From Candidatus Scalindua sp. (GTDB lineage: Bacteria; Planctomycetota; Brocadiia; Brocadiales; Scalinduaceae): a DNA stretch of 32,000 nucleotides. The position numbers and the translations under genes were made by a program. This document shows, piece after piece, positions 1 through 3,000 of this stretch (position 1 is its first letter; each line of letters opens with the position of its first letter). The stretch covers positions 3,540,001 through 3,572,000 of the forward strand of contig JALDRA010000001.1 of NCBI GenBank assembly GCA_031316235.1. Direction: 5' to 3'. The notes beneath the pieces are model-generated. The model did no database searches, was not told where the DNA came from, and saw nothing but the letters and a program-made list of their open reading frames with translations.

Positions 1-3000
1 AATATAAAATTGGAGATTTCAATGATCTTTGAGAGTCGCTCCCCCGTGCGGGAGCGTGGATTGAAACATGACACTGGCGGGCATCTCCTGAAGATTTTGA
101 TGTCGCTCCCGTGCGGGAGCGTGGATTGAAACTCTCATGATGTACTAGAGGTAGGTAATGATCAGGTCGCTCCCCGTGCGGGAGCGTGGATTGAAACTTC
201 GTAGACAATCCCGGATTCTGCCAGATAGTGAACGTCGCTCCCCGTGCGGGAGCGTGGATTGAAACGATTCTGGTGCCAGCCGTCAATGTCGCAGTAGTAG
301 TCGCTCCCCCGTGGAGCGTGGATGAAACCCTTTGCCTTTGTCTGTTTTACTCTCAGGGGCTTTACGTCGCTCCCCGTGCGGGAGCGTGGATTGAAACTTG
401 CTGCAATTGCAACGGGAACGTATACAGTTGACGTCGCTCCCCGTGCGGGAGCGTGGATTGAAACGTTCTTGTTCCTCTGTCATGTCTCCTGGGTAATGTC
501 GCTCCCCGTGCGGGAGCGTGGATTGAAAACGTTTCAGTGCTCAAGGATTCCGAATCCTATAACTGTCGCTCCCCGTGCGGGAGCGTGGATTGAAACATAA
601 CAGGAATAATATATCTATAAACCAAACTTGGTCGCTCCCCGTGCGGGAGCGTGGATTGAAACATGAATGAAATAGAGAAAACACGGGTGGCAGAGAGTCG
701 CTCCCCGTGCGGGAGCGTGGATTGAAACATAAACAAATTCCTTTCTATTGTTGGTTGCCAAAGTCGCCCCCGTGCGGGAGCGTGATTGAAACTTACCGGA
801 AAGGGCTCTGGTGCAGGCGATACGAAAGCTAAAGGTCGCTCCCGTGCGGGAGCGTGGATTGAAACTATTGAACCTCAATGATAAACTGTGATTGCTCGGT
901 GCGTCGCTCCCTCGTGCGGGAGCGTGGATTGAAACGGATAATCCGCGCTTTGCAAAATTCCACTCGACAACGTATTAGTCGCTCCCCGTGCGGGAGCGTG
1001 GATTGAAACTTGGATTTTATTCAGGAGGCATAGGGGTGAGAATACGAGGGGATGACGCCCCCCGTGCGGGAGCGTGGATTGAAACTTACTCCAGAGGCAT
1101 GAGTTAATTATTAAGGATATTAGGTCGCTCCCCGTGCGGGAGCGTGGATTGAAACGCAGTGGAAGTCATATACTTTGATTAGTGTCAGAGGAAACCGGTC
1201 GCTCCCCGTGCGGGAGCGTGGATTGAAACTTACGATTGCTAAAAACGCTGAATGCTAAGTCCCACCATCCAGTCGTCCCCCGTGCGGGAGCGTGGATTGA
1301 AACGCAACCCCTCTTCGAGATCGGGCAGGCTAAATTCTGGAGGCGCGTCGCTCCCCGTGCGGGAGCGTGGATTGAAACTTACCTCAGAATATAATGCGAC
1401 ACACTGATGACTCGATTAAGGTCGCTCCCCGTGCGGGAGCGTGGATTGAAACCTAGCAAACCAGGTCTCCAGGCTTTTAAGGCAATGGGTTAATTCCGCG
1501 TCGCTCCCCGTGCGGGAGCGTGGATTGAAACGTATCCAAATAGAGCAAGCCAAGACTGGAGCAGCGACTTTGAAGTCGCCCCCGTGCGGGAGCGTGGATT
1601 GAAACATCTTGTGCATCACTTGAATTTCCGCTTAATTAAAATATCCTTGTCGCTCTCGTGCGGGAGCGTGGATTGAAACATCGTAAGAAGGCGGCATTGT
1701 TGAGCACGGCGATTAAGCAATAGTCGCTCCCCGTGCGGGAGCGTGGATTGAAACTTCGTGTCAACCGCAACTCTCTGATTGCCCAAACAACCCTATCGTC
1801 GCTCCCCGTGCGGGAGCGTGGATTGAAACTTGCAATTGCCTAGGCAATGGCGTTTCCAGAGGTGAAGCTGGTCGCTCCTCGTGCGGGAGCGTGGATTGAA
1901 ACACCTATGTTGCACAGGTAGAGATAAATGAGCGTTTGATGTCGCTCCCCGTGCGGGAGCGTGGATTGAAACTTATCAAATGACATCTTATTTCGCAGGA
2001 CTTTTTGGTCAGCGTCGCTCCCCGTGCGGGAGCGTGGATTGAAAGTCTCAGAAAAGATTATCCAGGAGGTTTAATCGGTAATGAGATGTCGCTCCCCGTG
2101 CGGGAGCGTGGATTGAAACTGACGCTGACGAGAACCTTGCACGATAGTAAATAAGGATTTCAGTCGCTCCCCGTGCGGGAGCGTGGATTGAAACTCTTAC
2201 CAATGCTTTCAACCCCGCCGCCTTTATATCCCTGTCGCTCCCCGTGCGGGAGCGTGATTGAAACAACTTTCGGCAAGCGAAGCGTGCAGGATTAGTCGCT
2301 CCCTGCGTGCGGGAGCGTGGATTGAAACAACTCACAAGGGCCATAAACGTACCATGTACCTGTCGCTCCCCGTGCGGGAGCGTGGATTGAAACCGACCTA
2401 TCCACACGCCTTCTGTTGTCCGTGGGTCGCTCCCGTGCGGGGCGTGGATTGAAACTCAGATTTGGAAATACAAGGTTGGTTACTGATTTGTCGCTCCCCG
2501 TGCGGGAGCGTGGATTGAAACGATTTATCCTTTTGCGGCTTCATGGGGTGGGCAAGTCGCTCCCCGTGCGGGAGCGTGGATTGAAACACAATTCCGGGAA
2601 ACGTCCTTTTGTGCCTCTGATGTCGCTCCCCGTGCGGGAGCGTGGATTGAAACTTCAAACTCAATCTTGTTCCTCTTCAGAGTATCGTCGCTCCCCGTGC
2701 GGGAGCGTGGATTGAAACTTACCGGTAAGCACAAAGGTATCTGGTGATTGTGTCGCTCCCCGTGCGGGAGCGTGGATTGAAACACGTTTGCAAATCCCGG
2801 AAGGCCGAACACGGCATGTCGCTCCCCGTGCGGGAGCGTGGATTGAAACTTATAGGGGGCAAAAATTCGAGTGTACAATTCAGTCGCTCCCCGTGCGGGA
2901 GCGTGGATTGAAACTTTTTACGTCATAATTATGATTGAAAGATTTGTGTCGCTCCCCGTGCGGGAGCGTGGATTGAAACTTCATATTCCTGCATTTTTGT

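Follow-up and report, generated by a model that had tools for sequence, protein, structure and literature searches.

How does a CRISPR array come to hold a block of spacers about 8 nucleotides (nt) longer than their neighbors, while the repeat between them stays the same? The question is raised by an array at the left end of a 32,000-nt stretch of Candidatus Scalindua sp. DNA (assembly GCA_031316235.1, contig JALDRA010000001.1, positions 3,540,001 to 3,572,000), which we refer to as the window and whose positions are used throughout. The array belongs to a type I-C CRISPR-Cas locus, and its run of 20 consecutive spacers of about 42 nt at 793-2233 was found in no other comparable array. Tentatively, we read these as real spacers that were acquired in situ by the lineage's own type I-C machinery, with incomplete trimming of their ends leaving them 8-9 nt too long. 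The pattern is real and rare, yet all that is known of it comes from a poorly polished part of a single metagenome-derived assembly.

Structure of the array

A fuzzy repeat search on the plus strand resolved 67 copies of the 32-nt repeat GTCGCTCCCCGTGCGGGAGCGTGGATTGAAAC, the first being R1 at 35-67 and the last R67 at 4526-4557. The array is already under way where the window begins, as the first letters (S0, 1-34) form a spacer-sized segment unlike the leader, and the portion inside the window (1-4557, plus strand) comprises 66 complete spacers in addition to S0. The newest visible spacers, S1-S11, lie with their repeats at 35-762, in low-quality consensus, and measure 33-37 nt (mean 34.5 nt). 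After the bounding repeat R12 (763-792), the block S12-S31 with R13-R31 (793-2233) holds spacers of 42, 37, 42, 44, 38, 42, 42, 43, 42, 47, 43, 43, 43, 43, 41, 38, 41, 42, 43, and 39 nt, which is a range of 37-47 nt with a median of 42, a mean of 41.75, and a standard deviation (SD) of 2.3; 12 of the 20 are 42 or 43 nt long. On the trailer side the block is closed by R32 (2234-2264), after which S32-S35, lying among the error-bearing R33-R35 at 2265-2489, are back in the normal mode with 30, 33, 32, and 34 nt. The oldest 31 spacers (S36-S66, with R36-R67 at 2490-4557) are 33-35 nt long, with an SD of 0.5.

Taken together, the 46 of 66 spacers outside the block measure 30-37 nt. They differ from the long ones with a Mann-Whitney p of 6e-11, and the contiguity of 20 long spacers among 66 would arise by chance with a probability of about 1e-15. 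Long and short spacers are separated by one unchanged repeat type, and their guanine-cytosine (GC) content is equal. All lengths and the limits of the block exactly reproduce those in a preliminary description of this DNA, which had also called the block longer and more variable than usual. The greater length of about 8 nt stands; so does the wider spread (SD 2.3 versus 0.5), although part of it is sequencing noise left of 2490. As an aside, the lengths of S1-S11 exceed those of the oldest spacers (2522-4525) a little and vary more, with means of 34.5 versus 33.7 nt (p = 0.03), to which sequencing noise may contribute.

Type, orientation, and age

The repeat fits the type I-C class by its 5' GTCGC, its 6-bp stem, and its 3' GTGGATTGAAAC, and the loci that share the identical repeat include Cas1c-linked arrays. 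The assignment is settled by two short-read (Logan) contigs of the same strain, L105 and L110, which overlap at 100% identity. L110 carries cas8c/csd1, cas7/csd2, cas4, cas1c, and cas2, and because all five proteins exceed the NCBIfam cut-offs, the type proposed in the preliminary description is upheld; cas3 and cas5d are not on this contig. The usual type I-C spacer length of about 33-36 nt is kept outside the block and exceeded by S12-S31.

L105 is 100% identical to positions 4526-7140 of the window and shows the order cas1-cas2, a leader of about 180 nt, a single repeat, and the trailer sequence known from the window. This places the leader and cas operon to the left of the window and makes S66 the oldest spacer, with the long block intermediate in age and transcription running from left to right. 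The AT-rich trailer flank itself (4558-4743, plus strand) is identical to L105 and to L106, in both of which the array is collapsed to one repeat. An antitoxin-like gene at 5096-5380 is present on two short-read contigs of 3.8 kb each with a collapsed array.

Sequence quality of the left part

How far can the lengths in the left part be trusted? Of R1-R35, 16 repeats carry idiosyncratic errors amounting to 26 of 1,120 bases (10 substitutions, 4 insertions, and 12 deletions). Base runs that gained or lost 1 nt make up about half of these, and many fall within the CCCC run or beside it. All 32 repeats from R36 to R67 are perfect, with 0 errors in 1,024 bases, and the consensus quality thus changes sharply at about 2490. 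Since new repeats copy the leader-proximal repeat, true mutations would be passed on to newer repeats, which is not what the deviations in R1-R35 do; they are consensus errors in a poorly polished stretch (1-2489). Few reads probably support this segment; the likely reason for its poor polishing is that the array differs between strains in its leader-proximal half and has low read coverage there. The long-spacer block may belong to a minority variant.

Owing to the poor consensus, spacer lengths left of 2490 carry a noise of roughly +/-1-2 nt. Noise of this size explains the 30-34 nt of S32-S35 and some of the block's scatter; it does not explain the shift of 8 nt. Errors are of an equal kind in the block and in its short-spacer neighbors on both sides, S1-S11 and S32-S35, consistent with a single read set, or a single molecule, covering all three segments. 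Among the 67 repeats, a GTGGATT to GTGATT deletion occurs solely in R12 and R32, one at either edge of the block (R12 has a T deletion in addition), a match with a post-hoc chance of about 0.2-0.7%. It may be a coincidence or mark recombination or assembly junctions.

Rarity of the long-spacer block

The exact repeat is not confined to Scalindua: among 185,579 species-representative genomes, 104 loci from many phyla carry it. The 2,013 spacers in these loci peak at 34 nt and lie tightly at 33-36 nt, in agreement with the narrow type I-C length range that the preliminary description had assumed. Only 8 of them measure 40 nt or more and 2 (0.1%) 41 nt or more, in no case side by side. Judged by Cas1 identity, the nearest relatives are Ca. 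Scalindua sediminis (L108), two European Nucleotide Archive (ENA) contigs (L112 and L116), and another Scalindua sp. (L044). For most of them the Cas1 protein identity is at least 90%, while L116 is about 85% identical at the DNA level. The preliminary description had proposed a comparison with related strains; in these relatives, the spacers are an ordinary 32-36 nt long, except for deletion-shortened ones in L116, which has 3x coverage.

In 241 million metagenome records of the Joint Genome Institute (JGI), no two consecutive spacers of 40-47 nt flanked by the exact repeat were found. A second metagenome scan with a generalized type I-C repeat matched two contigs, both of which were rejected as long-spacer arrays. 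In L120 every apparent spacer ends in CTGT, so that the extra bases are part of a longer repeat. In L121 (JGI contig Ga0224506_10050998, 849-1096) the three leader-side "long" spacers start with ATGC; here, a 4-nt extension of the first repeat was likely passed on to newer repeats. All in all, a possible donor, in which this repeat alternates with spacers of about 42 nt, appeared neither in the 104 same-repeat loci nor in the JGI metagenomes or IMG/VR.

Separately, three IMG/VR viral contigs hold one exact copy of the 32-nt repeat each with no array around it (L117 6902-6933, L118 3055-3086, and L119 3375-3406), and L117 and L119 have a common flanking sequence on one side of the repeat.

Sequence features of the long spacers

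The possibility that a longer repeat is disguised in the block was rejected, as the long spacers have no common terminal motif; their strongest start signal is TT in 8 of 20, TTA in 5 of 20, and TTAC in 4 of 20. There is no internal duplication or stutter in them. Neither is a protospacer adjacent motif (PAM; TTC or GAA) retained at a fixed offset inside them, with no 3-mer surviving correction for 640 tests. An apparent homology between long and short spacers, resting on shared prefixes of 7-8 nt (S12/S39 and S30/S59), was discarded, because the local alignment scores fall within the shuffled null.

What the two length classes do have in common is their start. TT opens 8 of the 20 long and 11 of the 46 short spacers, or 19 of 66 overall (TTA 8, TTC 4, TTG 4, TTT 3), compared with 11% of 1,448 same-repeat spacers elsewhere and 12.5% in Scalindua and Brocadia relatives. 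Together with the equal GC content, this shared start favors one machinery, one target pool, and a processing of the 5' (PAM-proximal) end that would have been preserved.

Searches for the origin of the spacers, which the preliminary description had foreseen in viral and plasmid databases, yielded no protospacer there. BLAST of the whole array returned repeat-like matches only among 50,697 phage records (INPHARED) and other type I-C arrays only among 72,556 plasmids (PLSDB). Seven exact 22-24-mers from long spacers (S14, S20, S22, S24, S25, S27, and S30) had 0 matches in IMG/VR, and the spacers matched all fetched loci and the rest of the window by chance only. A search with 75 concatenated spacer peptides in a 5.8-billion protein database gave nothing at E <= 10, a result that is uninformative since, by a phmmer test, even a perfect 14-amino-acid match has an E of about 1e2-1e4 in a database that large.

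Cas4 and the adaptation operon

The preliminary description pointed to Cas4, which is known to set prespacer length, PAM, and orientation in the systems that contain it. Pyrococcus furiosus lacking both Cas4-1 and Cas4-2 acquires spacers that average 43-44 bp (Shiimori et al. 2018, summarized in PMC7293040). In type I-D, Cas4 "shortens spacer length", and its removal shifts the length by +1 nt (PMC5896167); in type V-A the effect of Cas4 removal is mild, and in types I-G and V-B there is none (PMC9419969). For type I-C, the structure comprises a 22-bp duplex plus overhangs; host exonucleases trim the non-PAM end, Cas4 slows that trimming, and in vitro, exonuclease trimming in the absence of Cas4 yields the normal length (bioRxiv 2022.05.30.494039). 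Defects of the exonuclease DnaQ in type I-E cause a shift of only 1-2 nt (PMC10470216).

Judging from the short-read consensus, the Cas4 of the Scalindua strain looks intact: it has 220 amino acids, keeps the conserved Cys residues and the D/E/K nuclease motif, and scores 160 bits on TIGR00372. Its present gene is thus not one that is absent or inactivated. Several observations on this operon deserve mention in their own right. DNA similarity to all relatives begins at about 2510 of L110, some 90 nt into cas4; upstream of that point, cas8c, cas7, and the ~30 initial cas4 codons resemble none of the relatives at the DNA level, and the remainder of cas4 with cas1, cas2, and the leader is 77-91% identical, which suggests a recombination breakpoint inside cas4. 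In the Scalindua-like relative L116 (1919-5793, 3x coverage), group II intron reverse-transcriptase genes lie between cas4 and cas1, and cas4 is split into two open reading frames, possibly by sequencing errors. The relatives L108 (8717-9280) and L113 (6278-6850) have an extra gene of 187-190 codons just upstream of cas4, with a weak PF05635 four-helix-bundle match in L113; the operon of our strain is without such a gene.

Origin of the long-spacer block

Our tentative explanation is that the 20 long spacers were integrated at the array's own leader by the lineage's Cas1-Cas2(-Cas4) during a time of incomplete prespacer end trimming. One 3' overhang would have been left about 8-9 nt longer than the normal ruler prescribes, that is, a 22-bp duplex plus 6 nt on each side, or 34 nt. 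The extra bases would sit at the PAM-distal end, since this is the end that host 3'-5' exonucleases normally trim and that Cas4 shields. That one machinery made both length classes is suggested by the unusual 5'-TT start they share, and the persistence of this bias in the long spacers argues against a complete loss of PAM-side processing. The normal spacers on the leader side may reflect trimming that was later restored. Alternatively, and in fewer steps, array variants present side by side in a mixed population may have recombined; that S0-S35 has so poor a consensus suggests a minority variant. In favor of acquisition in situ, no donor array was found in the 185,579 species genomes or the 241 million metagenome records, and the double cas4 deletion in P. 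furiosus offers, by analogy, a precedent for a shift of this size (PMC7293040). A more far-reaching version, in which the array records a temporary and reversible change of the type I-C ruler, is rather speculative: a factor from a mobile element or an altered Cas4:Cas1 dosage is a candidate cause that might keep Cas4 on the non-PAM overhang, whereby prespacers would be integrated with about 8-9 nt untrimmed.

Critically speaking, a number of points weigh against incomplete trimming in situ. The block is seen only in a single low-quality stretch of one assembly. The strain's Cas4, Cas1, and Cas2 look intact in the short-read consensus, so that either a reversal or a recombination step must be assumed. 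Judged by analogy, the size of the shift is awkward as well, because Cas4 defects in types I-D, V-A, and I-G change the length by about 1 nt or less and DnaQ defects in type I-E by 1-2 nt. Lastly, no protospacer was found in the phage, plasmid, IMG/VR, fetched-locus, or window searches that would show the PAM, the orientation, or the extended end. The altered length ruler suggested in the preliminary description is supported in part: its precedent is the P. furiosus strain without both Cas4 proteins (PMC7293040), but other systems shift by about 1 nt or not at all.

Among the other explanations, the one we take most seriously, though we do not think it probable, is that the block was made in another array with the same repeat and a longer ruler, be it in the same cell or in another strain or organism, and was joined to this one by homologous recombination between repeats or, in silico, by an assembler that led reads from differing array variants through identical repeats. 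The exact repeat occurs in arrays of many phyla, which makes recombination or mis-joins physically easy; the left 2.5 kb is of low quality and probably of low coverage and strain-variable; and the G deletion common to R12 and R32, exclusive to these two of 67 repeats, could mark the junctions. Such a join would also spare us the loss and regain of a function. Yet the recombination with another array that the preliminary description had listed lacks a donor: no array with spacers of about 42 nt and the same or a generalized type I-C repeat turned up in the genomes, metagenomes, or viral contigs searched. Furthermore, the block matches the short spacers in GC content and in the TT-start bias peculiar to this array, it matches both its flanks in error regime, and the altered ruler of the donor would itself still want an explanation. 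We regard it as unlikely that Cas4 was completely lost or inactivated for a time (e.g., by mutation, mobile-element insertion, or an inhibitor) and later recovered, although this had been the leading candidate of the preliminary description. The long spacers of P. furiosus without both Cas4 proteins (PMC7293040) and the shortening effect of Cas4 in type I-D (PMC5896167) speak for it. So do the group II intron between cas4 and cas1 of L116 and, as signs of a plastic locus, the breakpoint in the first ~30 codons of cas4 and the two insertion sequence elements beside the array. However, cas4 is intact in the short-read consensus of the strain, full length and with its motifs, and the 5' bias, which loss of Cas4 should erase along with orientation, is shared by both classes and kept or even stronger in the long spacers. 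Moreover, type I-C trimming without Cas4 gives the normal length in vitro (bioRxiv 2022.05.30.494039), and in types I-D, V-A, and I-G the length moves by no more than about 1 nt (PMC5896167, PMC9419969).

Could the spacers have been inserted by different machinery altogether? Some co-resident CRISPR systems are known to share arrays, and a second adaptation module, meaning another chromosomal or mobile Cas1-Cas2 with a longer ruler, might have used this leader and repeat for a time. This we consider very unlikely: integrases are usually specific for their own leader and repeat, no same-repeat array with a 42-nt mode exists in the genomes or metagenomes searched, and the second Cas1-Cas2 that the preliminary description had suggested was not seen in the DNA read, where the 27 kb right of the array are free of cas genes and the left side has the type I-C operon alone. 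Hardly credible, in our view, is an artefact of a long-read consensus built from few or heterogeneous reads, even if the block lies entirely within the sole error-rich part of the window. The preliminary description had rightly held that single-base errors cannot explain the shift, as deletion-biased errors of about 2.3% cannot add 8 nt to 20 successive spacers while the repeats stay at 32 +/- 1 nt. The lengths also cluster tightly at 42-43 nt, the spacers are free of stutter and duplications, and neighboring spacers with an equal error regime have normal lengths.

Neighboring features in the window

The DNA to the right of the array holds two toxin-antitoxin pairs, a DUF3768 gene, two DDE transposases, and housekeeping genes. 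More precisely, 4744-11132 includes a Gp49/HigB-like toxin with its helix-turn-helix partner, the DUF3768 gene, and a RelE toxin with an MqsA-like antitoxin, and the DDE transposase genes are located at 7258-9021 and 9414-11132. In addition, an intergenic element of ~110 nt occurs in several copies with 72-91% identity (about 28300-28413, 19597-19709, 15155-15294, 31205-31250, 18494-18621, and 16631-16674). It resembles a repetitive extragenic palindromic (REP) or miniature inverted-repeat transposable element (MITE) and is also present in another Scalindua genome (L044 7879-7977).

Significance

The setting of spacer length by Cas4, the Cas1-Cas2 ruler, and host exonucleases has been studied almost exclusively with engineered mutants. 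A natural type I-C array whose spacers lengthen from 34 to about 42 nt and then return to normal, while the repeat stays unchanged, would be evidence from the field that a ruler can change its state in a living population. If so, arrays could preserve, like fossils, the past state of the adaptation machinery besides past infections. With its leader and repeat, the Scalindua Cas4-Cas1-Cas2 would also provide a concrete system for finding out at which end trimming stops short and whether CRISPR RNAs of this kind can serve Cascade. Should the block rather be a join of strain variants, it would still point to a sub-lineage with an altered ruler and would also serve as a warning about CRISPR arrays in long-read metagenome assemblies.

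Comparison with known systems

The extended-repeat arrays L120 and L121 look alike at first glance, as they have a repeat-to-repeat period of ~73-74 nt and a type I-C-like repeat core, but they carry a fixed terminal motif that the long spacers of the window lack. In the type I-B system of Haloarcula hispanica, processing at both ends modulates spacer size too; there, however, the variation amounts to a few nt, is sequence-dependent, and is scattered over the array instead of forming a contiguous block with a new mode (PMC5416893). The Cas4 and DnaQ mutants of types I-D, V-A, I-G, and I-E likewise illustrate that defective end processing lengthens spacers, with shifts that are about 1-2 nt or absent (PMC5896167, PMC9419969, PMC10470216), compared with 8-9 nt in the Scalindua block.

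The P. furiosus double cas4 mutant resembles the block in that its spacers are longer by several nt and more broadly distributed, and it differs in its archaeal type I-B context, its engineered deletions, and its loss of PAM and orientation (PMC7293040). The Scalindua strain, on the other hand, has what looks like an intact Cas4 and a retained 5' end bias. With the canonical type I-C (Dvulg) arrays, finally, it shares the 32-nt repeat architecture of GTCGC, stem-loop, and GTGGATTGAAAC as well as the order cas8c-cas7-cas4-cas1c-cas2-leader-array, and it differs from them in its 20 consecutive spacers of ~42 nt.

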